Assembly (NCBI GenBank): GCA_038087875.1
Contig: CM075978.1
Span: 19,282,001 to 19,346,000, forward strand
Length of the DNA stretch: 64,000 bases
Source of the DNA: Malacoraja senta
Lineage: Eukaryota
Direction: 5' to 3'
Numbering within the stretch: position 1 is the first letter of the stretch; every line of letters begins with the position of its first letter. A program made the translations under genes and the position numbers. Below the pieces are notes generated by a model. It did no database searches and was not told the origin of the DNA. It saw only the letters and a list, made by a program, of their open reading frames with translations. Below are positions 11,955 to 62,693 of the stretch, in pieces.

Positions 11955-14140
11955 TAGAAAATAGGTGCAGGAGTAGGCCATTCAGCCTTCCGAGCCAGCA
12001 CCACCATTCAATGTGATCATGGCTGATCACCCACAATCAGTACCCCCGTTCCTGCCTTCTCCCCATATCCCTTGACTCTGCTATCTTTAAGAGCTCTATC
12101 TAACTCTCTCTTGAATGCATCCAGAGAATTGGCCTCCACCGCCCTCTGAGGTAGAGAATTCCACAGACTCACAACTCTCTGTGTGAAAAACTATTTCCTC
12201 ATATCCATTCTAAATGGCTTTCCCCTTAATCGTAAACTGTGGCCCCTGGTTCTGGACTCCCTCGACATCAGGAACATATTTCCTGCCTCTAGCATGTCCA
12301 AACCTTTAATAATCTTATATGTTTCAATAAGATCCCCTCTCATCCTTCTAAATTCCAGACTATACAAGCCCAGCCGCTCCATTCTTTCAGCATATGACAA
12401 TCCTGCCATCCCGGGAATTAACCTGGTGAACCTACACTGCACTCCCTCAATAGCAAAAATGTCCTTCCTCAAATTTGGAGACCAAAACTGCACACAATAC
12501 TCCAGGTGTGGTCTCACTATGGACCTGTACAACTGCAGAAGGACCTCTTTGCTCCTATACTCAACCCCTCTTGTTATGAAGGCCAACATGCCATTCGTTT
12601 TCTTCAATGCCTGCTGTACCTGCATACTTACTTTCAATGACTGATGAACAAGGATCCCCCAGATCCAGTTGCACTCAAGCTTTTCCCAACTTGACACCAT
12701 TTAGATAATAATCTGCCTTCCTGTTTTTGCCACCAAAGTGGATAGCCTCACAATTATCCACATTAAACTGCACCTGCCATGCATCTGCCCACTCACCCAA
12801 CCTGTCCAAGTCACCCTGCATCCTCATAGCATCCTCCTCACATGTCACACTGCCACCCAGCTTTGAGTCATCTGCAAATTTGTTAGTGTTACTTTAAATC
12901 CCTTCATATAAATCATTAATATATATTGTAAATAGCTGCGGTCCCAGCACCGAGCCTTGCGGTACCCCACTAGTTACTGCCTGCCATTCTGAAAGGGACC
13001 CGTTAATTCCTACTCTTTGTTTCCTGTCTGCCAACCAATTTTCTATCCATGTCAGCACCCTGCCCCCAATACCAGGTGCTCTAATTTTGCCCACCAATCT
13101 CCTATGTGCGACCGCATCTTCCTGGCGAGGATGCGACTATTTTCCGAGTCGCGCCCTCGCCCCCCTACCAATTGGATTGGCGCGACATTTCCTACCGGGG
13201 ACCGGACCAAAGCTTCAGCAGCGGCGCAGCACTGGATACATCGCGGAGCGGGCGATGCCTCACCTGGGATCGCCTTTTGAAGCCTTTTGAGTGTTGGGCC
13301 TGCAGCATCAACATCGCGGAGCTGTGGTCTGCAGAGCTCCCAGAGCGGGCAGCGCTGACCAACATTGCGGAGTCCTGGGACCCTTTGCCGAGGGCCGCCA
13401 GCATTAAATCTCCGCCCAGCTCAGCCTGTGGACTTCAGGAGCCGCGGACTCCGGTAGGTAGTGGCCGATTCGGAGGTCCAAGCCGCTGAGGATGTTCTTC
13501 TGTTCCGACGTCGGAGTTCCATCGTCCCGGCGAGAGGGCCTGAACATCAGTCCACCCGTAGCGGCGACTGCGGGGGGCTAGGGAGGCCCCGACCACGGGT
13601 GAACATCGGGGAACGTGGAGGTTGACTGAACTTTGATGCCTTCCCTCACAGTGAGAAAGTTTGGTACCGCTGTGGGGATGTTTGTGTTATGGATTATTGT
13701 GTTCTGTGCTTTTATTTTTTTATTCGTATGGCTGTATGGGAAAAAGCATTTCGTTGTCTAAGTACTTGTACTATGGACAATGACAATAAAGTTGAATCAA
13801 ATCAAATCAAATCAAATGCTTTCTGAAAGTCCAGGTACACTACATCCACTCACTCTCCCTTGTCCATTTTCCCAGTTACATCCTCAAAAAATTCCAGAGG
13901 ATTAGTCAAGCATGATTACCCCTTCATAAATCCATACTCGGACTGATCCTACTATTGCTATCCAAAAGTGCTGTTATTTCATCTTTTATAATTGACTCCA
14001 GCATCTTCCCCACCATCGATGTCAGGCTAACTGGTCTATAATTCCGTTTTCTCTCTCCCGCCTTTCTTAAAAAGTGGGATAACATTAGCTACCCTCCAAT
14101 CCACAGGAATTGATCCTGAATCTATAGAACATTTGAAAAT
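11955..14140 (-). mobile_element. CR1 LINE (RT and 3' end), interrupted at 13108-13817
   Basis: [50 protein letters not shown]1 3' UTR. Confidence 0.92.
13108..13817 (+). mobile_element. Structured GC-rich retroposon, copy 3 (5'-truncated, inserted in CR1)
   Basis: Hairpins 13125-13160 and 13644-13677, AACATCGCGGAGC modules, tail ATTTCGTTGTC..ATGACAATAAA plus (AATCA)n; CR1 sequence resumes on both sides. Confidence 0.75.
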
Positions 14141-14451
14141 AAGATATCAAATAGCTGCGTGTACACAGTCTTGAAAGATTGAGGTGTTTGTAATGTAATC
14201 CTCCATTTGACAGGGAATATGAACCTTAAAAGTTCAGAGATTTATTTTGAAGCAATAAATTTGTTATTACAATTCACTTCGTTTACCGGAGCACAACTCC
14301 CAAGCCAGGTATATTTGAAACTGCTAATGTTAGTCGATCGCTTGTATTTGTTTACAACTTTCGAAATATCAATCGGAGAAACATATCCTTTTCTACAGAA
14401 CAGGAAGATGAACCGAATCGAAGCATCACAGCCACACGGACGTCTTCCTAC

Positions 14452-14565
14452 CTGGTCATACGCATTTTCGTCCAGCAGCTGCGTGCATATGTCAGCACAA
14501 AACTGGAACTTGCGTCTCCTGAAATAGCTCCAGGCCAAGAACATGGGGTCCATGTCCAACCCCAT
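14452..14565 (-). CDS. TTC8: TTC8/BBS8 (BBSome TPR protein) coding exon 1; exon 2 not found in the window
   Basis: Translates MGLDMDPMFLAWSYFRRRKFQFCADICTQLLDENAYDQ, matching the vertebrate TTC8 N-terminus (LAWSYFRRRKFQLCAD..TQ.L...YDQ). 114 nt followed by a GTAGGA donor; divergent from EML5 as in mammals. Confidence 0.95.
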
Positions 14566-16233
<1,668 letters not shown>

Positions 16234-19180: not shown

Positions 19181-19364
19181 CCTGATTTAAAATTCTCTGT
19201 TTATATTGATTATTTTGGCCATCATAGGCATGGTCCAATGGCCACTAGCTGTGTTGTAGATTTCCATTATTCTATGACTTTAAACATAGTTGAATGAGAT
19301 CAATTTCCCGAATATACTATGTAAGTAAGACACTTGATGGTTTTGTAATCAATCTGCAGTACAA

Positions 19365-19826
19365 TAAAATTATTTTATTTGCTTTTAAATCTCTAAATGG
19401 GCTCGCCCCGCCTTACCTCTCTGAACTGCTCCACCCATACGCTCCTGCCCGGTGCCTCAGGTCAGCTGATCAGCTGCTCCTGGAGGTACCGAGGTCTAAG
19501 CGGAAGCTCAGAGGGGATAGAGCCTTCTCTGTTGCTGCTCCGGCACTCTGGAACACCCTGCCGTTGCACATCAGACAGCCCCCCTCACTGTCCATCTTCA
19601 AAACCAGTATTAAAACACATTTATATTCCTTGGCTTTTGACACTGCTTGAGACTTTGCTCCTGTTTTTAGTGCTTTTAATGTTTTTAATTTTATTGTTTT
19701 TACTCTTTCGTTTAATGTTTTTATTGTTATGTAATAATTTCTTGTCCATGATTAGTCATGTACAGCACTTTGTTGCAACTGTGGTTGTTTTTAAAGTGCT
19801 CTATAAATAAAGTTATTATTATTATT
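19365..19826 (+). mobile_element. L2 LINE 3' end
   Basis: AFKSLNGLAPPYLSELL..GDRAFSVAAPALWNTLP..FKTSIKTHLY; tail AGCACTTTG..AAAGTGCTCTATAAATAAA plus (ATT)n. Confidence 0.88.
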
Positions 19827-25572: not shown

Positions 25573-25876
25573 CTTATTTCCAATAAATGAAAGCTGATCT
25601 CTGGGATGTAATTTTCATGATAGTCCAAGAGAAAGTGGCAATTTGGATCCAAAATGTCTAGCTACAGAAAACAAAGGATAATGTTAATGTGAGTTTTAGA
25701 AACTGGATTCAGTTGGTGAGATTTCCGCAAGGTTCAATGTTAAATCACTTGCTTTTCGTGGTGGTTTGCGGTCCAATGAATTGCATTTAAATGTTAGAGC
25801 TGCAATTAAGAATACAAATAATACCACAATTAGCACAGTGTTTGATAGTGAAGGAGAAAATTGAAGGTTTCAGAAG

Positions 25877-26693
25877 GTGGTGTGGCGGCGCCTAACAGCA
25901 GTGGCTCGACTGCAGTCCATCTTTTTTTTATTTTTGTCTTGTTAAATGTATGTTATGGTTCTAGTTTTATTTTATTTTGTTTAGCTGTGTATATGTGGTG
26001 GGGGGTGGGGGAAACCGTTTAATCTCTTCCCTGTTCGGAGACCCGACTTTTTCCCTGTCGGGTCTCCGATGTCGTTGGGCCTAACATCGTGGAGCCGGCG
26101 GCGGCCTCCGGCCGGAACCAACCTGAGGGCTCCAGTCGCGGAGCCTGCGGACCTGCCATCGCGGAGCTGGCTGACTTCGGAGCGGGAGGAGCTGTGGTGA
26201 TGCGCGGCTGCAACCTGGCTTGGGAGCTTCTGAGGCTCCGGCCGCCGGCCCTGTGGATGGTAACATCGGAAGCTTGCATGTCCCTGGTGGGAGACCGCTT
26301 TTCAGAGCTCCCGCAGCGGCAACTTCTCCCGCCGGAATCGCGGGGTGAAATGACTTGGAGGGGGCCTAACAGCGCCCGGAGCAGCTTAACGGCCGCGGGA
26401 CTTACCATCGCCCGCCAGGGGCTTTAACATCGGGAGCCCCAGTTTGCCTCGACGTTGCAGTTTGACTGCTGGACTGCGGGAGAAGAACAAGGGAAGAGAT
26501 AAGACTTTTGCCTTCCATCACAGTGGGGAGGTGTTGGAGATTCACTGTGATGGATGTTTGTGTAAAGTGTGTTAAGTGTGGGTCTATTTTGGTTGTAATT
26601 GTTAAGACTAGAAAATGCAATTTTGTTCAATCCAAGCTGTTTGAATGACAATAAAAGGCATTCTATTCTATTCTTTTCATTCTATTCTATTCT
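25877..26693 (+). mobile_element. Structured GC-rich retroposon, copy 4
   Basis: Perfect 13-bp stem 26035-26069, perfect 12-bp stem 26514-26554, tail GAATGACAATAAAAGGC plus (ATTCT)n. Confidence 0.75.
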
Positions 26694-26883
26694 AAGATAT
26701 TCATAGAATGGTCAAATGGGTAAAGAAGTTCCAAAAGGAGTTCCATATAAAGAAGTGTGAGGAAATTGGGAGTAGAAAGAATGCTGGAATATAAGTAAAG
26801 GTAGCAATATATTGCGATGCTTCCAAGAAGTAGAAAAACAGGTCAAGAAGGTACACTGGATGCTTGCCCTTATTGAAATAAGA

Positions 26884-27015
26884 GTTTAGTTTATTTTATT
26901 GTCGCGTGTACTGAGGCACGGTGAAAAGCTGTTTTGTTACGTACTATGCAGTCAGTGAAATGACTATACATAATTACAACTAAGCTAGCCCCAGTGTACA
27001 GATACAGGATAAAGG
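26884..27015 (-). mobile_element. Rex1-like LINE 3' tail
   Basis: Minus strand GCTTTTCACCGTGCCTCAGTACACGCGACAATAAA followed by short repeats. Confidence 0.55.
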
Positions 27016-28364
27016 GAATAAGTAAAGATTTAAAAGAATGGAGCGATTTTGAATTGAATGATTGCAGATCCACTTCTGGGACCAGCATGTAAAAAGTCGA
27101 CTGGCTTCAGTTCCATCTTGGAGAAGTGAAGTTATGCTGGAATTTTATTAAAATAGTTGGGCTGAGCTCTCCAATGGTTCGTGTAATTTGAATTATTGCA
27201 ATTTGTTTGCCATGTAAGGATGCACCTTTATTGACAAAACTGCAACAAGGCAAAGCATCTTTTGAAATGATTAATTGAAGTTCAAATACTTTTCTAAAGT
27301 AATATGTTAATGGAGGATGAATAATCTGAAAGCCACAAAGTGCATTGAAACTCTAATGGCCCATTTCTAAAGTCAATGGCTTAACTATACCACATTTTTC
27401 ATAAATATTCCGATGACCATTGTAAAGTTATCAATCACAAGGTCATTTAACATTTTCTTTGGTATACTTTCAATTTTTTTTAATTGAGTTTGCACGCAGA
27501 AATAAAGATGAGTATGGTTGAAAGCATGCTGATGGTAGAAAATATTGTAATGATGGATGTTTTTTACATTAGTTAATGATGAAGAATGATTATAGGCTGA
27601 ATCCATGGAGAATGAACATTTTGAAGATTGTACAGGCTGAAGATATTAAATCAGAAAACATCCATCATTTTCAAACAGTGCATTAGAAGCACTGTGTGAA
27701 TTTGCATACCTATTCGTGGATAGTTTAAACATGCTAACTGATTAAAAACATTTTACTTATAAGCTCAATAAATTTATAAATCTTTGAGGCATATTTTGTT
27801 TTACTTTCACAACTGAAAATACAGGTGCATTTCCTTCTGTTTATTAATCGTTAATATTTTCTGACTATTTTCAGTATTATTTATTCTCTATTATCTGTTA
27901 AATTAGTCACCTGGTGTGTAGTTCACTGCAATTTATCTCATGTTAATTAAAAAGCCTTCCTCCTTGTATTTGAATTGCATTGGTGTCTTTCTTTCTAATT
28001 AAGGGCTATAGATGAGCATGAGCTCCAACAATACTTTATTTATTGTACGGTAGCCTTCACAGGCACCACATCTATACATTTGTTAAAGGATGAACCATGC
28101 TGGGAACTAACATGATTCCCTAGGGAACAGGGTATGCAAAGCTTGAATAGTTCACATAATAAAACAAAGGATGATGACTTATTTGACCAGTATTGAATAT
28201 TAAATCTCCTGTTTCAAGAGGAACCTGATTACTCCTGGCCTGATGTTAACATCGTCTATACTTTACTTGACCTTTTCTATTTCTGTGATTATATACCCAC
28301 ACTGACCTTCCTATGCTGGGTTCCTCTATTGCTAGAATAATGCACATGCCATCTGGGGGAATAT

Positions 28365-30780
28365 GGAGCATAGAACAATACAGCACAAGAACAGGCCATT
28401 TGGCACAGAATGACTGTGCCAAACATGACATTAAAACCAACTCTTATCTGCCTGCACATAATCCATATCCTACCATTCCCTGCATGCACCGATCCAAAAG
28501 TTTCTTAATTGCCTCAACCACTATTCTCGGCAAAACTTTCCAGGCACTCGCCACATCTATCTTCTTCTATCTATCTATATCTATCTATATTATATTAAAA
28601 CTCTCTGGCTGCCATCCGCCTGACTTCTGGCTGCCATCCGCCTGACTTGTGTCACAAATCCCCTTTGATACCGCCCTAGGCCCACACAGCACGCGAAAAC
28701 GCCGATATTTTTTACCATTTCTAAAGAGATTACATTTATCTTTACGAATAGACACTCCTGATTAAATTTGGTCGTGTTTGTGTACACTTTCTAAAATTAA
28801 ATCCATCACACCCCCCTCCCCCACTCACTCATTTTGTCTCCTCCTGCTGGTCAGCCACCATAACGGCTGCTGTCGACCGCCTCTGCTCCGAAAACGACGC
28901 CATCTTTTTTTCGCTAGCGATTTTCACCCCCGTGTATGAATAACGTTCGGACTCTAAAACCTCGGGTTCTGAACCACGTTCAGTGTCCAGGGGTCTGAAG
29001 CACGTTCTGAATTTTCACCCCGGGGTCTGAAACATGTTCTGGGTTTTTTTTCGCTAATGATTTTCACCCCGGGGTCTGAAGCACGTTCGGGATCTCACAC
29101 CCCGGGGGTCTTAAGCACGTTCGGTGTCCAGACCCAACGGGTCTGCACTTGGTCTAGTATAATATTAAAACTCTGTGTGTGTGTGTCTGCTTGACTTGTG
29201 CCAGCCAGCACCTCCGCCAACACCGCATGCAGAAACGCCGAGATTTTTTCCATTTCGGTAGAGATTTCATTTTTCTTTACGATTAGGCACTCCTGATTAC
29301 ATTTCATCCTATTTATGTACACATTTTAAAATAAAATCCATCACCTCCCCCCCCCCCCCCCCCAATCACTCATTTTGTCTCCTCCTGCTGGTCAGCCACC
29401 ATAACGGCTGCTGTCGACTGCCTCTGCTCCGAAAACGACGCCATCTTTTTTTCGCTAGCGATTTTCACCCCGGTGTATCAATCACATTCGGACTCTAAAA
29501 CCCCGGGTTCTGAAGCACGTTCAGTGTCCAGGGGCCTGAAGCACGTTCTGAATTTTCACCCCGGTGTCTGAAGCACGTTCGGGATCTCACACCCCGGGGT
29601 CTTAAGCACGTTCGGTGTCCAGAACCAACGGGTCTGCTCTTGGTCTAGTCTCCTTTAAACTTTTCTCCTCACCTTGAAGCAATGCCCTCTAATATTTGAT
29701 TATTTTTTCATCCTGGGAAAATAGGTCTGACGGTCTCCCCTATCTATGCCTCTCATAATTTTATATACTTCTATCATGTCTCCCTGTAATGTCTGATTTT
29801 CTAGAGAACCAAACCCATGTCTGTCCAACCTCTGTAGCTAATACCCCCTCATACAAGCATTATTCCATCATTCCTGATACAGGTAAAACACCTCTGCACC
29901 CTTTCCAAAGCCTCCACATTCTTCCTGTAATGGATTGTTTTCAGATTGTGACCAGAACTGTATGCAATACTCCAAATGCGGTCTAGCCAAAGTCCTATAA
30001 AGCTGCATCGTGACTTCCTTATCAAATGCCTTACTAAAATCCACCAAGACAACTTCCACTGCCCTACCCTCATCAATAACCTTTGGCATCTTCTCAAAAA
30101 TCTCTATCATTTGTAAGACATAATCTGTCACGTACAAAGCCATGCTGACAGTCCCTAATAAACCAATTCTCTTCCAAATGGGAGTAGTTTAGAGATAATT
30201 TGAGATACAACGTGGAAACGGGACATTTGGCCCACCAAATCCACGCTGACCATAGATCACCCATACACTGGTTCTATGTAATCTCACTTTTGCATCCTAC
30301 ATACTAGGGGCAATTTACAGAAGCAAATTAATGGACAAACCTACACATTGGAATGTGGGAGGAAACCAGAGCACCTGGAGAAAACCCACACAGTTGGTCA
30401 CAGGGAGAACATACAAACTCTGTACAAACAGCATCTGTTGTCAGGATCAAACCTGGGTGTCTGGCACTGAGGCAGCATCTCTGCCATTTTGAATCCCACC
30501 CTGAAGAAATAACTTCCCTACCACTAATATGAGGCTCATCAGACTATAATTCCCTGGATTCTCTCTACTTCCCCTTCTTAAATAAAGGAACAACATAAGG
30601 CATGCTCCAGTCCTCTGGGATCTCAGCTGTGGCTCGAGAAGATGCAAAGATTTGCATGAAGACTCCTGCGATTTCCCATCCTGCCCAATAACCTGGGATA
30701 GATGCCATTAGGTCCTGGGGGTTTATCCACCTGAATGCTGTTTAAGAGCCCAGCACCTCCTCCATCTTAACCTCAAACTA
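28365..30780 (-). mobile_element. Decayed CR1 hosting a Helitron dimer and a SINE (30186-30490)
   Basis: LARPHLEYCIQFWS, DFSKAFDK, ENPGNYS..SL..VVGK fragments. Confidence 0.75.
28556..29648 (+). mobile_element. Non-autonomous Helitron head-to-tail dimer (28556-29157, 29158-29648)
   Basis: A|TC 5' end, CTAG|T 3' end, no TSD, 7-bp hairpin CAGACCC-AAC-GGGTCTG (29129-29145) just before CTAG; host reads ccacA/TCTCCTTTAAAC when the element is removed. Confidence 0.88.
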
Positions 30781-35709: not shown

Positions 35710-36410
35710 GGTGGCGGGAAGCGCCACCAGCAGTGGCTGCCTCGCCAACTGTCTGTCTATCCATTCTTCCTTTTTGTTGTTTTTAGTATGTGTTAAAGTT
35801 TGCTTTAGTGTCCCTTGGTTTGTTTGATGTGGGGCGGGGGGGTTGGGGGGAACTTTTTTTCAATCTTATACCTCGACGGAGATGTGATATTTTCCGTATC
35901 GTATCTCTGTCCCCACTGTGGCCTAACATCGTGAAGTTGGCGGCCTTTCCTGGAGACCGGCAGGCACTCCAAGCCACGGGACTCTGCGGGACTTTAACAT
36001 CGCGGAGCTTGCAATCCGTTTGCCGGGGATCGAAGCTCCAACCGCGGGACCTGTGGAATTTAACATTGTGAAACCCGCGGTCTCTGGTAAGAAGAGGCCG
36101 ACTCGAGAGCTCCATGTCGCAGAGAGAGATTCATCCGCCCCGACACGTGAGTTTCGATCACCCCGACGGGGGCTTCGATTGTCGGCTGCGGCGGCTTTGA
36201 TCGCCCCGGCTGCGGATGGTTTGACTGCCCCGACCACGGGAGAACTAAGAGGAAGATTGAACTTTATTGCCTTCCATCACAGTGAGGAATATGGAATGTT
36301 TATGTTAACTCTTATGTGGTTGTGTGTCTTGTTGCTTTTCACTTAGTGTGGCTGTATGGTAACTCAAATTTCACTGTGCCTTAACTGTGACAATAAACTG
36401 ACCTTATCCT
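35710..36410 (+). mobile_element. Structured GC-rich retroposon, copy 5
   Basis: Head GCGCC..GGCTGCCTCGCC, stem 35876-35910, GGCCTAACATCG, TGCCTTCCATCACAGTG, tail ATTTCACTGTGCCT..GTGACAATAAA. Confidence 0.75.
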
Positions 36411-45121: not shown

Positions 45122-47889
45122 CAAGTCAAGTCAAGTCAAGTGAGTTTATTGTCATGTGTCCCTGGTAGGACAATGAAATTCTTGCTTTGCTTGAGCACAA
45201 CAGAACATAGTAGGCATTTACTACAAGGCATTCTATAAATATATACACAATGGTCAATATACTGATAAAGTGCAAATAACAGTATTGGCTAGTAAAGTTC
45301 AGTGTTATGTCCGAGCCAGGTTTAATAGCCTGATGGCTGTGGGGAAGTAGCTGTTCCTGAACCTGGTCATTGCAGTCTTCAGGCTCCTGTACCTTCTACC
45401 TGAAGGTAGTAGGGAGATGAGTGTGTGGCCAGGATGGTGTGGGTCCTTGATGATGCTGCCAGCCTTTTTGAGGCAGAGACTGTGGTAGATCCCCTCGATG
45501 GAAGGGAGGTCAGAGCCGATGATGGACTGGGCAGTGTTTACTACTTTTTGTAGTCTTTTCCTCTCCAGGGCACTCGAGTTGCCGAACCAAGCCACGATGC
45601 AACCGGTCAGCATGCTCTCTACTGTGCACCTGTAGAAGTTAGAGAGAGTCCTCCTTGACAAACCGACTCTCCGTAATCTTCTCAGGAAGTAGAGGCGCTG
45701 ATGTGCTTTCTTAATAATGGCATCATTGTTCTCGGACCAGGAAAGATCTTCAGAGATGTGCACGCCCAGGAATTTGAAGCTCTTGACCCTTTCAACCATC
45801 GACCCGTTGATATAAACGGGACTGTGGGTCCCCATCCTACTCCTTCCAAAGTCCACAATCAGTTCCTTGGTTTTGCTGGTGTTGAGGGCCAGGTTGTTGT
45901 GCTGGCACCATATGGACAGTTGCTCGATCTCTCTTCTATACTCTGACTCATCCCCATCAGTGATACGTCCCACAACAGTGGTGTCATCAGCGAACTTGAT
46001 GATGGAGTTCGCACTATGTCCGGCTACGCAGTCATGAGTATAGAGTGAGTACAGCAGGGGACTGAGCACGCAGCCTTGAGGTGCTCCCGTGCTAATTGTT
46101 ATCGAGTCTGACACATTTCCACCAATACGAACAGACTGTGGTCTGAGAGTGAGGAAGTCGAGGATCCATTTGCAGAGGGATGCGCAGAGACCCAGTTCTG
46201 CGAGTTTGGTAACCAGCTTGGAGGGGATGATTGTGTTAAATGCCGAGCTGTAATCGATGAATAACAGCCTGACATATGAGTTTTTGTTGTCCAAGTGGTC
46301 CAGAGAGGGCCAGCGAGATCGCATCCACCATTGATCTGTTGTGGCGGTAAGCGAACTGCAGTGGGTCCAGGTTTTTGTCGAGGTAGGAGTTGATCTGCGT
46401 CATGATCAACCTCTCAAAGCACTTCATCACCACAGGCGTTAGTGCCACAGGTCGATAGTCATTGAGGCACGTTACCTTACTCTTCTTGGGCACTGGTATA
46501 ATTGATGCCCTTTTGAAGCAGGTGGGGACCTCAGACCTCAGAAGTGAGAGGTTGAAAATGTCTGTAAAAACTCCAGCCAGTTGGTCCGCACATGTTTTTA
46601 GAACGCGACCAGGTATACCATCAGGTCCAGGCGCTTTTCGAGGGTTCACCCCTATGAAGGATTTCCTGACGTCGGCCTCTGTGACTGAGACTGAAATACC
46701 ATCACAGCGAATGGGGGCTCGGCAAGGCACATCGGTGTTCTCCCTATCAAAGCGTGCGTAAAACGCATTGAGCTCATCAGGGAGTGATGTTTCGCCGACA
46801 TTCGAGCTGCCTCCTGATTTCGCCTTGTAAGAGGTAATTGCATTCAGGCCCTGCCACAGCCGCCGAACATCAGTCTCTTCCTCCAGCTTGGAGCAGGTCC
46901 CTTTTGGCCTTTTTGATGGCCTTACCAAGGTCGTATCTGGACTCCTTGCAGGCCACTGTATCATCAGACATGAATGCCCGGTGTCTGGACTTCAGAAGAG
47001 TGCGGATCTCAAAGTTCATCCAAGGTTTCTGATTGGGAAACGCTCGGGAGGTTTTGGTGGGGATGCAGTCCTCCACACACTTCTTAATGAAGTTTGTAAC
47101 GACTGTGGCGTATTCGTTCAGGTCCGTTGCCGAGTCCTTGAACATTGCCCAGTCTACAGACTCCAAAGAGTCCTGGAGTTGTTCCTCTGCCCCCCCTGAC
47201 CAGCTCTGTACTGTCCTCACCTCTGGGGGTGCGCTCTTTAATTGCTGCCTGTAGGCAGGAAGAAGCAGCACCGCGGTGTGGTCGGATTTACCGAAGTGAG
47301 GGTGAGGGATAGAGCGATAGGCATTCTTGATGGTGGTGTAGCAGTGGTCGAGGGTGTTTGATCCTCTGGTGCAGCAGGAGACATGTTGGTGGAAGTTAGG
47401 GAGTGATTTCTTTAGGTTTGCCTTATTGAAGTCCCCGGCTATGGTGGTAAACGCCTCGGGGTAAGACGTCTGGTGTTTGTTGACCACGGCGTGCAGCTCC
47501 CTCAGTGCCAGACGGACGTCTGCCTGGGGTGGGATGTAGACCGCGGTCAGGATGATGGAGGTGAATTCCCTCGGAAGGTAGAAGGGACGACACTTCACCG
47601 CCAGATGTTCGAGGTGTGGAGAGCAGGAGTTGGACAGGACTGCCACGTCTGAGCACCACGCAGAGTTGACCATGAGGCAGACGCCCCCTCCTCTCCCTTT
47701 CCCAGATGCCAGTGTACGGTCCATACGATGGATGGAGAACCCTTCAGGCTGGACCGCTGAATCTGGGGAGCTGGGGGTGAGCCATGTCTCTGTGAAACAG
47801 AACACAGAGCATTCCCTCAGCTCCCTTTGATAAAGCAGTCTTGCCCTTAAGTCCTCCACTTTATTTTCAAGGGACTGTACGTTGGCCAA
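45122..47889 (-). mobile_element. Rex1/Babar LINE, near-complete APE-RT ORF broken into three frames
   Basis: ANVQSLENK..CFTETWL, AGDFN, SDH (APE); [43 protein letters not shown] (RT); (CTTGA)n tail. Confidence 0.9.
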
Positions 47890-47964
47890 CTGTCATTTCA
47901 CAATTTCAACCATAGTCATACTTGTGACTTGTTTCATTAACACACAATAATGTTCACATGCTTT

Positions 47965-48341: not shown

Positions 48342-51300
48342 AGGATGTATGTACATCACAATAAAACACCTTACTTCTTGACATACTCACCATATATTTC
48401 AGGCAGTCTGACAACTCCTCCTGCCCTAGTCTGTGTGATGGTGTTTCTTTCAGAAGTGTCTTTCTTTTCAGTGTGTACATTCTGGGCATCACTTCTAGTT
48501 TCTTCTCCTGTGTCACTTTGTTTTTGTCTAGTTTTCTCTGTGTTATGAGTTTCACGAGTTGCATATTTTTCTGGTGATGCATGTTTTTCCTGTGTCAGCT
48601 GAGGTTGCAAAGGTTTCTCGGACTTCTCCGCTTCTCGTGGTTTCTCTGGAGTTATGTGTGGGGATAGTTCTCCGGTCTTCTTCAGATCCACTCGATTATG
48701 TCGGATTAGAAGTCCTGACTTTGTATGATCTCTCATCCAGTCGTTTCTGAGATGTTGCTCTCTGCCATCTGTTATCTCCTATTTTATAGGGTTTGAGTGT
48801 TACGACATCACCTTCTTCCAGGATTGGTTGATCCTTGGCATGTTGGTTGTAGATCTTTGACTCTTTTCCTCGGAAATCCTTCATCTTTTCCCTCTCTTCT
48901 GTGAGTCTCAGCACCACGTGGTTTGAGGAGGTTTGATGTGCTTGGAAGTGACGTTCTTGTTCTCCTTCTATGTAGTCTTTGTGCAGGACTACTGTTCACT
49001 ACTTGCGCAGGGGTGTTGCACAATTCCAATATTGCCAAGTAGACATTTGTCTTGCAGTGAGTGGTTTTCTTCAGTACTCGCTTAGCTGCCTTGACTGCCG
49101 ATTCCACCTTTCCATTAGCTTGGCTATGTCTTGGAGAAATTGTGCAGTGGTCAAATTCCCATTTCCTGGCAAATTTGGCGAATTCCTCTGATGAGAACTG
49201 TGTCCAGTTGTCGCTTACCACAGTGCTGGGAATTCTATATCTTGCAAAGTGGTTCTTGAGTTTCACAATGACTGTCCTGCTGGTCAGGTCATACAGTCTG
49301 TCTATTTCCCAGAAATTAGATAGATAGTCAACTGTGATTAAATAATGCTTTCCCTCAAGTTCGAACAGATCGGTTCCCACTTTCTCCCATGGGCGATCTG
49401 GGAGGTCATGGGGTATCAGAGTTTCTTTCTGATTCTGTTGTTCGAACGTCCTGCAGGCTTCACTGTTTGAAATGAACTGCTTCACATCGGAGTTCATTCC
49501 AGGCCAGAAAATGCATTCTCTAGCACATCTGAGGGTTCCTTCTACTCCTCGGTGAGAGGTATGGAGTGTCTCCTTCATATCTTTGCATAGAGTAATAGGG
49601 ATCACAACTCTCTCTCCTCTGAATACTAGGCCGTCTTGCACACTCAACTCGCTTTTTGATGATGACTTCCAATGGCTTGTGGTCACTCTCAACGATCACT
49701 AGGTCACGTTCAACGATTCATAGGTGTACTGATGAAAGTGCTCGAGGCCAACACTATTGCTAGTGCCTCCTTCTCAATCTGAGCATATCTTTGCTCGGTT
49801 GGCGTCAATGCTCGACTCACATAGGACAGCGGTTGTCCTTTCTGCATAAGTGTTGCACCTAGACCTGCCTTGTTTGCATGACATTGTATGGTCAGCTGGT
49901 GTGTAGTACGCCAGGATAGGTGCCATTGTCAACAGCTCCTTGATCTTTGACATTGCCGTGTCATGTTCTGATGACCATTCCCACTCTGCATCCTTGTGGG
50001 TCAATCTCCTCAAAGGCTTGAATGTGTCCGACATCATTGGCAGGAATCTTGCCAAGTAGTTTACACTGCCTTGTAATCTTTGGATTTCTGTTGGATTGGT
50101 TGGGTTGGGCATCTCCAGGATAGCCTGGATCTTCTTCGGGTCTGGTTTCAGACCACAATCTGTAACTACATGTCCTAGAAATGTGATACAAGTAGTTTTC
50201 ACTACCGACTTCCTCCAGTTCAGCTTGATGCCTTTGTCTCTGCATCACTGAAGATGATCTTGCAGTCTTGCATCGTGATTCCTTTCTGCATCTTCTCTGG
50301 TGTCCCCAACTCCGAATAGGATGAGGTAATCTGCAACACATTCTACTCCCTCTAATCCTTCTAGGGCTTGTTGCAGATCTGGAAGATCTCTGCACTTACT
50401 TTCATTCCAAATGACAACCTCTTCCTGCGATATCTCCCAAAAGGGATGTTCATGGTTGTTAGGAAACTGCTCTCCTCAACTAGTTTGCAGTGGAGGTATC
50501 TTGACTTCATATCGAATTTGGTGAAAATCTTCGCATTAGACAGCTCAGGGAGTACATCCTCTATGGCTGGTAGTCTGTGGATCTCCCTTTTCAGGACTTT
50601 GTTGAGGGGTCTAGGATCTATGCAGAACCTCAACTTTGTGCTGCCCTTTTTCTCCGTAACGACCAGCCTGTTACACCACTCAGTTGGTTCTTCGACTTGA
50701 GTCAAGATGTCCTGCTCGACCACCTTCATGAGACCATTCTTGACCTTCCCTTACATGGTTACAGGAACCGGCTTTGCAGAACACTGTATTGGGGTCACAT
50801 CCTCTGTCCTAGTTACCAACTTGATCTTGCCTGGTAGTCTCCCCGGTCTTTTGTCGTCAAAGACATCTTTGTAGCTCTTGAGTAATGAGCCAGTCACGCT
50901 AACAGTATTCAGGCTCTTGAAATTCTCGTAGTGAACCGTGATGAGTTTCATCTGTTGCGCAGCTTTGCCGCTCAGGAACGGTGTGAGCCAGCCTTCCTCT
51001 ACCACTATGAAGTGAACACGGTACTTCTTGTTGTTCATCTTGTTCCAGAGTATGACTTTCGTCCTACCTTCTGCCAGCAGGTTGGATCCATTGTACATCT
51101 TTAAGACTATTTTCTCTTGTCTAATGTCCTCTTTGTTAGGTACACGATCCTTGGAAATCACATTAACACTGGCACCAGTCAATCTGAAACTTGATGGCTT
51201 CTGTGCCGACCTGCATCTCAACGAATAGGCCTGAAGATGAATTGTTTCCGGCTGCATTGATCCCAATGCAACTCACAGACCCTGTGTTGGAAATGGACAT

Positions 51301-52839
51301 TGTGTCAGATATCTCTACGACCTTGTGCAGACCCCGTATCTGCTTGCTCTCCTTCCTCTGCTTGCAGCAGCAGCCGAAGTGGTTTTGTCGTCCGCATCTG
51401 TTGCAGTCCTTCCCACACGCTGGGCATTCCTCCTTTCTACGCTAGTGCGTCCTTACACAGAACTTGCGCTTGACTCTTCAGTCAGAGGAAGATCAGTCCC
51501 TGATTCTTCCTCTGCGAAGAAAAATCAACCATCTTTTCCCTCTGTTAGAATCGTTCCACCTTGTGCATTGTCGGCTCTTTGTCGATGACCTGCATTCTTG
51601 TTGCTGTTACCTCCAAGGATCTGCATATATTCACAGTATCCTGCAATGTCAGATTCCTCCTCTGAAGGAGTGTCTTCCTAGTTGACAGGTCTGCAATACC
51701 AAGGACGATGCGATCTCGAATGAGGCTTTCTCTCAGGCAATCGCAGAAGTTGCATGTTTTAGCAAGCTCCTTCATCTCTGCAACATACGATTCAATGCTT
51801 TCCGCTGGTTTCTGGTCTCGTTTATAGAAAATGAATCTTTCATATGTTTCATTCGTCTCTCCATGACGATGGAAGACATCTTGTCGATGATGACTTTCAC
51901 ATCCGTCTCATCTGCTACCGTTTCGAACGTCAGTGTATTGAAGATTCACAGTCCTTCTGGTCCAACAGTGTGCAGGTATACTGCTTTTTGATACTGTTTC
52001 TCCTTCTTATCCAGGTCTGTTATCACTGCATAATTTTTGTACATTTGTTTAAACATTTTCCACTCTTCCACACGGTTCTCTTTGAACTTTGGATTGGGTG
52101 GTGGAGTGATCTTTAAGCAGTCTCCCACATCAACCCTCGACCCCCACAGCACTGATTTACACACCGCGTCTTAGCCTTGTGTGCGCACTGACCTGCATAC
52201 CGTTCCTCTCATGCATGCAGCTAGTCCGGTCGCTGAGCGTTGAAACACTAATTCCTGAAATCTTTTCAAAGCATTTTTGCTAATCATCATAGCATCCATT
52301 TGATCCACAAATTTTCACTTTCACTGCTGCCACCATGTTTTGATATGTGTCTACTTACGATATAGGTAAAACTAGCACATATTGGACGGAGAAAGATGGC
52401 TCCACGCACACTCGTGTTGGGATCAAAAGCAGGAATGATTTATTTCCGTGAAATGTCACTGACTGATTCATATAATTATATGCGCGAGTCTGAGCATGTG
52501 CGAGAATGAGTACAGCTCAGATGCATAAATTACATGGATATTGTCACATTAATTCAATGTCCAAATACTATTTGCTTAAAGATTTATCAAGCAGATGCAT
52601 TGCCCGAGCATTGTTTTATTTTATAAAGTGATGGTGACAGAAATTAGGCCATTGCAGACCAGTTTCTTTAACATCTGTCAGAGGATAAAATAGACACAAA
52701 ATGCTAGAGTAACTCAGCGGGACAGGCAGCATCTCTGGAGAACAGGAATGGGCGACATTTCAGGTCGAGGCTCCTTCAGACCCTCCTTGTCAAAGTACAA
52801 AAGTTAGAAGCTAATATTCAGTTCAGTAAAATGGAGCAC

Positions 52840-61474: not shown

Positions 61475-61825
<351 letters not shown>

Positions 61826-62693
61826 TAACTCATTTTAACTTGTTTCAAACATGCTTCTTTTTCTTATCACAGACTGCAAAAATGAACAAAAAACAGGCAC
61901 ATTCTACAGAGGTTCTGTGTAGTAATGCTCTGGGGAATTTTTTATATTTTTTGTGAATTTGGAATGTGTTCTGAGCTTTTCACTTTCAGATACACATAAT
62001 CTTAAACTTGGACCTCAATATGTCTGAACAATGCTAACGAACAAAGCCATAGAATATTTAGCTATATAAATGTAATCAAGTGAGTGAAATTATTGTGATC
62101 AATCCGTTCAGTGCATTCTGCAGGATGTGTCTTAAGTATTGTGTATACTTGGGTTCACTAACCTGCAAAGGTGGCAGAATAAATTTTGAGAAAACCTTAT
62201 ATTTTAAAAGAAGGCATTTGAGAGACACTCGTAGAAATATAACGATAATTCAGGGAATAAATTTGGTTATCCAAAAGTTTACTACTTGTATCCCATGCTG
62301 GAATGTGTTCTGCTCCCCCAGGAGTTCCTCGGCTCCTGGTTTCCAATGCCACCAATTTAATATTCTCATCCTTTTATTCTTATCATAATCACTCTCATCT
62401 CTCATCTTCTCAACCCTCTAAGAATCGTGCATTCCTGCATATTTGGCCTCATGCATTTCTCCTACTCTAGGCTGTATTGTGGCTGCAGAGTTTTCAGCTG
62501 TTCCCTAAATTTCCACATCTCCACTTTCCATTATTTTGTTAACATTATTGCGACGTCATTACATTTAATAGAAAGTGATTTCCATCCACATTCAAAAATA
62601 TTTAAATCTATAGTCCACTTTCCTAGAATTTACACTTTTGTGAAGAGCTTAGAACATTTACTCTTCATTGAATACACTAAATAGATGTTAGTT

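Follow-up and report, generated by a model that had tools for sequence, protein, structure and literature searches.

SINEs of the CORE, V and Deu groups, whose heads derive from tRNA, 5S or 7SL RNA, join a conserved core to swappable LINE tails and reach very high copy numbers. Bipartite non-autonomous LINEs (RIME, NARTc, Bov-A, RTESINE and R2 SIDE) are attributed only to RTE, Ingi, Vingi and R2 in the available text of Kojima 2018 (PMC5786205, PMC7245038). The same paper, in the portions at hand, has two-ended derivatives arising in a few LINE clades only, "for unknown reasons", and treats recognition of the tail by the LINE protein as established for stringent LINE tails (Kojima 2018, PMC5786205). 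The accessible sections of a 2026 survey describe Rex1 as lacking ORF1 and leave the cause of its high mobility unexplained (PMC13343379). In the LTR retrotransposon Ty1, CYC5 and CYC3 form a long-range 5'-3' helix that is critical for reverse transcription, according to the available part of PMC3681743.

The window, by which we mean the whole 64,000-nucleotide stretch of Malacoraja senta DNA analysed here, contains six related repeats with a hairpin module, hairpin A, at the same position. Hairpin A is one arm of a high-copy, non-coding jumping RNA with Rex1-type LINE ends. The copies, and a LINE in the same window, are as follows.

768..1495, forward strand: copy 1, subfamily S1, full length, with a tail 82% like a Rex1-type tail
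1750..2625, forward strand: copy 2, with an L2-type tail; its subfamily has neither the P1 5' strand nor the basal half of hairpin A
6992..7214, reverse strand: copy 6, subfamily S6, only the 5' part
13114..13817, forward strand: copy 3, subfamily S3, 5'-truncated, sitting within a CR1-like repeat
25876..26694, forward strand: copy 4, subfamily S4, full length, with the defined 5' end and a Rex1-type tail
35710..36410, forward strand: copy 5, subfamily S5, full length
45165..47892, reverse strand: Rex1-type LINE, 5'-truncated, with an endonuclease-like N-terminus, RVT_1, PF09004 and the same terminal motif in its tail

Within copy 4, the parts are these.

25880..25908, forward strand: 5' head hairpin, like the 5' ends of Rex1-type LINEs in the same genome
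25910..25917, forward strand: P0 5' strand; its predicted partner is the segment preceding the tail stem-loop
25920..25990, forward strand: U-rich linker with T runs
26007..26015, forward strand: GGGGGAAAC, nearly invariant, after a G tract (exact in 34 of 50 rows), a possible partner of loop A
26022..26032, forward strand: P1 5' strand, a pyrimidine-rich linker
26035..26069, forward strand: hairpin A, a 13-bp stem with a 9-nt pyrimidine loop at 26048-26056
26090..26485, forward strand: variable body, GC-rich, with internal duplications and no conserved ORF
26490..26500, forward strand: P1 3' strand, purine-rich, the 11-bp complement of 26022-26032
26514..26554, forward strand: hairpin B, covarying, stem of 12-14 bp
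26604..26617, forward strand: P0 3' strand, damaged in copy 4 by a small deletion and intact in the subfamily majority
26617..26694, forward strand: Rex1-type tail stem-loop, AATAAA and an (ATTCT)n microsatellite

The window also carries broken fragments resembling LTR-retrotransposon pol, CR1 and L2, together with a duplicated 480-nt repeat of 33-nt units (3581-4734, 48808-51907 minus, 11976-14140, 19294-19810 and 28680-29649). Two short frames on the minus strand resemble host-gene exons, at 14242-14679 and 61475-61828; we take them to be TTC8/BBS8-like and an EML-like WD repeat.

Copies of the family are 700-900 nt long, with hairpin A about 150 nt from the 5' end. From the defined 5' end, the order is head hairpin, U-rich linker, G tract leading into GGGGGAAAC, pyrimidine linker and hairpin A, followed by a GC-rich variable body, purine segment, hairpin B, LINE-type tail, AATAAA and microsatellite. 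Exact matches to a 17-nt hairpin-B motif put the copy number at 26,416 at least in a genome of 1.94 Gb (the reversed control gave 0), and 60 evenly spaced 10-kb stretches yielded 8 hairpin-A and 10 hairpin-B modules. Among 91 copies anchored on the 3' motif, which are drawn from the matches listed first on contig 1 and include one duplicate, hairpin A is kept in 61 and the 5' end in 52. In eight sampled subfamilies, majority sequence and members agree at 92-97% identity. The 47 natural copies and 9 majority rows collapse to 15-27 lineages, one row being excluded for its short body. One internally deleted copy has its 5' head fused almost directly to the hairpin-B module.

The defined 5' end, the microsatellite tails, the 5'-truncated copies and the lack of a long target duplication identify the family as a retroposon; no target-site duplication longer than 7 nt was found in the 25 copies that could be scored. 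The eight majority sequences share no conserved ORF, the longest ATG-initiated frame ranging from 39 to 180 codons, and each contains 6-11 runs of four or more T. A head derived from tRNA, 5S or 7SL RNA was considered and rejected, since ARAGORN found 0 genes and Rfam gave no match. A Pol III SINE was likewise rejected on the lack of a tRNA head, the lack of a shared ORF and the many T runs; those in the U-rich linker argue against Pol III transcription. Over the window and eight subfamily loci, Rfam returned only chance-level matches, all outside the motif. A metagenome scan with the hairpin-B motif gave two matches, both to unrelated sequence. A search of sequencing runs for the family returned DNA or unlabelled runs from several organisms, at shares of 0.04-0.39, with no RNA run among the matches listed; the three runs inspected carry the family.

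The original prediction was of a stem that changes in sequence while keeping its pairing. The stems it described in copies 1, 3, 4, 5 and 6 (the last on the minus strand) lie where it placed them and fold as it described. Across 39 copies (4 from the window and 35 of the 47 natural rows, module deletions and near duplicates excluded), the stem covaries, with changes on both sides in 9 of 12 pairs, and 88-90% of hairpin A cells are paired as against 37-61% with slid partners. Its use of the G-U pairs needs dividing: when copies 5 and 6 are set against their subfamily majorities, several of theirs prove to be CpG decay that followed insertion, while the changes between subfamilies are informative. 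The eight majority stems comprise 94 Watson-Crick pairs, 14 G-U pairs, not all of them independent, and 0 interior A-C pairs, whereas stem changes in 179 copies of the same eight subfamilies run to 62 G-U and 59 A-C. This contrast argues that selection acted on the sense RNA of the source copies; it points to neutral decay of the inserted copies and to selection limited to a few source copies. The claim that the sense-strand RNA has a selected fold is supported by the stem covariation, by the partner-swap test and polyA reads described below, and by the G-U to A-C contrast.

The subfamily of copy 2 (module at 1880-1945) retains the apical 6 bp of hairpin A only. This L2-tailed subfamily, which also lacks the P1 5' strand, turned up at 11 loci, with 10 different flanking sequences among them, and its spread argues that P1 and the basal part of hairpin A are not strictly required. 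The apical stem-loop is the kept unit, the basal half and P1 being dispensable in at least one L2-tailed lineage. Removed from its context, the hairpin is an ordinary retroposon stem-loop.

Folding of the majority sequences with RNAfold brought out two long-range helices. In P1, the linker before hairpin A pairs with the purine segment before hairpin B, some 460 nt away. In P0, the predicted partners are the stretches immediately following the head hairpin and immediately preceding the tail stem-loop. RNAfold recovers P1 in some subfamilies only; in a newly found subfamily, the P1 partner was predicted first and then read, and it matched. In one clade, a one-base deletion on the 5' strand of P0 is mirrored by one on the 3' strand. 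Hairpin A, hairpin B, P0 and P1 all covary between subfamilies. When partners were swapped among 12-27 lineages at two clustering levels, cognate strands paired better than non-cognate ones in hairpin A (z -8.1/-6.4), hairpin B (z -4.8/-3.9), P0 (z -5.5/-4.8) and P1 (z -6.0/-5.3), the penalty for a swap being 2.6-4.4 kcal/mol. Since one of the four control pairings reached z -3.7 (antisense strand, fine threshold), the p-values of this test are overstated and not phylogeny-safe. The swap signals are present on the antisense strand too, because most of the pairs are Watson-Crick. Independent tip pairs, taken from a tree that rests mostly on columns other than those tested, numbered 1-5 per column, so that the test was underpowered; directions were mostly concordant, no column was significant, and the best, in P0, had 3.2 of 4 going the same way and 0 opposite. 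The case for phylogenetic independence comes from the lineage swap test and this underpowered tip-pair test. Copy 4 as a whole folds no better than its shuffles on the sense strand (z -1.45), and the antisense strand gives z -4.77. A further helix, P3, is weak overall in both folding and the swap test and strong only in subfamily S227. Three other contacts were tried and discarded: kissing between loop A and loop B, in which cognate pairs did worse than swapped ones (z +3.1/+2.5), and two pairings without a swap signal, one between GGGGGAAAC and the segment before hairpin B, the other between the G tract and a downstream C run. The P0 3' strand was not found in the L2-tailed rows. In one L2-tailed lineage, the P0 5' strand, left without its partner, pairs with a 5' extension instead.

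We take the LINE at 45165..47892 of the window to be Rex1-type, and the tails of some retroposon lineages to be L2-type. The LINE has RVT_1 and PF09004 domains, and the Rex1-type ORF is single and runs from nt +5; the single ORF and the lack of an ORF1 fit the Rex1 clade, and this LINE is a candidate for the type of autonomous partner. The S1 tail matches a Rex1-type tail at 82% over 45 nt, and other tails match other families by eye. One subfamily has at its start an 11-nt motif and hairpin shared with full-length Rex1-type LINE copies; the other heads, too short for blastn, resemble Rex1-type families C and D by eye. Against five LINE copies, blastn aligned the element at the tail and found no counterpart of the body. 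By these comparisons, the retroposon combines LINE ends with a foreign body and is not an internal deletion of a LINE alone.

The Rex1-type LINEs themselves show end-pairing at the P0 position, a 5'/3' duplex being present in three of the four families for which both ends were at hand. Of 500 shuffles, 1, 0 and 2, respectively, gave duplexes as strong as those of families A, B and C (-28.7, -30.4 and -32.1 kcal/mol), as did 1-2 of about 200 internal windows. That of family D, represented by an old copy, was reached by 57 of 500 and is not significant. The families share 32-53% protein identity in the N-terminal region. The end-pairing sequences of A, B and C are mutually unrelated, and the 5' end of A pairs equally well with the 3' end of C. 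In family A, the pairing is found in four copies. A 255-nt two-ended Rex1-type derivative has a duplex of its own (-28.1 kcal/mol, 0 of 500 shuffles); an element similar to it lies at 26890-27150 on the minus strand of the window. The 5'-terminal motif of Rex1-type LINEs contains the ATG that opens the ORF, so that the end-pairing involves a coding 5' strand, which in families A and B lies inside the ORF. A hydrophobic stretch opens the ORFs of B and C; in B it is followed by Y-x4-L-L, which we take to fit the eIF4E-binding consensus, and a comparable motif with Y occurs in A.

Assuming a stranded library of the usual kind, polyA reads from a related organism run about 10:1 in the sense direction; 11,544 reads were placed, 10,439 of them only partly. 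These reads show neither sharp ends nor a 5' end pile-up at the motif. Many extend into the flanks upstream of the element, so read-through transcripts contribute. Read depth over positions 25864-26724 of the window is at its maximum at hairpin A and drops toward the tail, the reverse of the usual 3' bias. The head motifs vary by subfamily and include CCGGAAGT; we presume them to be YY1-like (sense or antisense) or, in the case of CCGGAAGT, ETS-like.

On balance, we lean toward a model in which the Rex1-type ends and the predicted end-paired form of the sense RNA help the retroposon to borrow the LINE reverse transcriptase and to be copied at full length. Pol II would transcribe a source copy from an internal promoter in the head. 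P0 would then close the RNA, bringing the 5' end beside the tail stem-loop, which the LINE protein is expected to recognise. P1 would close the variable body, with hairpin A at the junction as a structural or protein-binding arm and not a catalyst, and P1 and the two hairpins would pack the body. An RNA that encodes no protein may in this way mimic the end-paired template of the LINE, favouring full-length copying. Mobilisation in trans by LINE proteins is suggested by the shared tails, the 5'-truncated copies and the lack of long target duplications. A larger version of this model, to which we give slightly less than an even chance, is that the RNA of Rex1-type LINEs is circularised through pairing between the opening codons of the ORF and the 3' UTR beside the tail stem-loop, that the reverse transcriptase needs both ends, and that parasites lacking an ORF have kept the helix, together with a multi-helix core and possibly the loop-A pseudoknot, through dozens of subfamilies. 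If true, this would amount to a Ty1-like cyclization element in non-LTR retrotransposons.

Other roles for the fold have to be weighed against this model. That it is a self-cleaving ribozyme trimming the transcript seems very improbable. Some subfamilies do have a three-way junction of P1, hairpin A and P3 with conserved GAAAC and AACAA linkers, and 5' ribozymes are reported, in the available text of PMC5786205, for clades that form bipartite elements. However, inserted copies begin some 130 nt 5' of the motif, and cleavage at the motif would destroy the template. A search by eye, against the consensus sequences, found no hammerhead, HDV-like or twister core. With no match to an Rfam covariance model, no conserved catalytic core seen and no sharp read ends (weak evidence in the case of the reads), neither the ribozyme nor the Xrn1 block that had been suggested for hairpin A has support. 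A wider form of the latter, in which the fold acts chiefly as a nuclease block or export element for an intronless non-coding Pol II RNA and has no part in reverse transcription, is unlikely but deserves more weight. Sense polyA transcripts are abundant in the related organism, and the inner core was retained after the swap to an L2-type tail, while P0 was lost; P0 is, on the other side, tied to the Rex1-type tail, and the reads have no 5' end pile-up at the motif. The topology also differs from that of known xrRNAs, which have the pseudoknot partner downstream, the partner proposed for hairpin A being upstream. We consider it improbable that the pattern arose at the level of DNA, with GGGGGAAAC and the loop as sites for promoter proteins and the stems produced by template-switch repair of imperfect palindromes, in the absence of selection on RNA. 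The presumed YY1-like and ETS-like motifs of the head, the strong antisense folding z and the swap signals on both strands would accord with such an origin. It is hard to reconcile with the 14:0 ratio of G-U to A-C in majority stems against 62:59 in decaying copies, with P0 and P1 partners 460-700 nt apart, and with divergent autonomous families that are complementary at the same P0 position.

The original prediction also had the UUUUCC loop of hairpin A pair with an upstream GGAAA. This holds in part as a description of the copies: the loop of copy 1 lacks UUUUCC, and copy 3 is 5'-truncated with no upstream GGGGGAAAC. As a fixed helix, it is not supported by covariation. In the 39 copies, none of the 5 pairs of the GGAAA/UUUCC register has double changes, and 16 of 41 copies have an A-C mismatch at one and the same position. 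Loop A differs by subfamily (UUCUCC, CCCUCC, UUUCUU), and this variation breaks the register. A looser contact, in which loop A makes a tertiary interaction with the upstream G-run/GAAA and hairpin A lies back along P1, is doubtful, if less so than the readings above, and could be added to the end-pairing model. Both the loop and the G-run/GAAA are conserved, and the stem of 12-14 bp may be about as long as P1 plus spacer. When the CC of the loop is set against the leading two G of GGGGG, a G-U-rich helix of 5-6 bp can form in most rows, positions 1-6 being paired in 45, 48, 49, 48, 47 and 41 of 50; the longest loop/GAAAC helix is at least 7 bp in 36 of 50 rows and exceeds four control pairings. 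However, positions 3-5 of this shifted register are mostly G-U (43, 29 and 37 of 50), and a G run can pair with any purine-free loop. In S227, the youngest subfamily (97% identity), the G run is altered and the pairing falls to about 4 bp. A register-free swap test gave no cognate advantage (z -0.6/+0.4), at low power since the G run barely varies.

The retroposon resembles the bipartite non-autonomous LINEs in having no ORF, a LINE-derived 5' end and 3' tail, probable Pol II transcription and exchange of tails between families. It differs from them, as far as the available text on those elements goes, in its Rex1-type ends and in the 550-700 nt of structured body between the ends. The available portions of PMC5786205 make no mention of covarying end-to-end helices in such elements. 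The conserved core, swappable LINE tails and very high copy number are shared with the CORE, V and Deu SINEs, from which the retroposon is set apart by the lack of a tRNA-like head, the lack of an Rfam match and its 6-11 T runs. With the Rex1/Babar LINEs, as described in the accessible sections of PMC13343379 and PMC6274825, it shares the 5' motif, the U-rich stretch, the tail stem-loop, AATAAA, the microsatellite and the position of the end helix; unlike them, it has no protein-coding capacity, and blastn matched it to the five LINE copies nowhere but at the tail. The term "stem-loop" has no match in the available text of the Rex review (PMC6274825) or of the 2026 CR1-group survey (PMC13343379). 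We found no description of the retroposon family or of Rex1 end-pairing in the literature searched, whose scope lay outside Repbase, Dfam, supplements and subscription journals, where the family may be deposited.

For P0, whose function here is a prediction, the closest functional precedent is CYC5/CYC3 of Ty1, going by the available part of that report; Ty1 is an LTR element that needs strand transfer, whereas the retroposon and the Rex1-type LINEs are non-LTR. The many subfamilies provide a natural covariation set for a structured non-coding RNA of 750 nt, and the end-pairing is its interesting and testable part. A 5'-3' helix may explain the high share of full-length copies. What is new relative to the described systems is a Rex1-type-ended bipartite non-autonomous LINE with a foreign body; the covariation of hairpin B, P0 and P1 goes beyond the original prediction, as does the place of hairpin A within a larger RNA with predicted end-pairing. 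A covarying 5'-3' helix common to divergent Rex1-type LINEs and their parasites offers a concrete element that can be mutated to address both why few LINE clades have two-ended derivatives and why Rex1 is so mobile.
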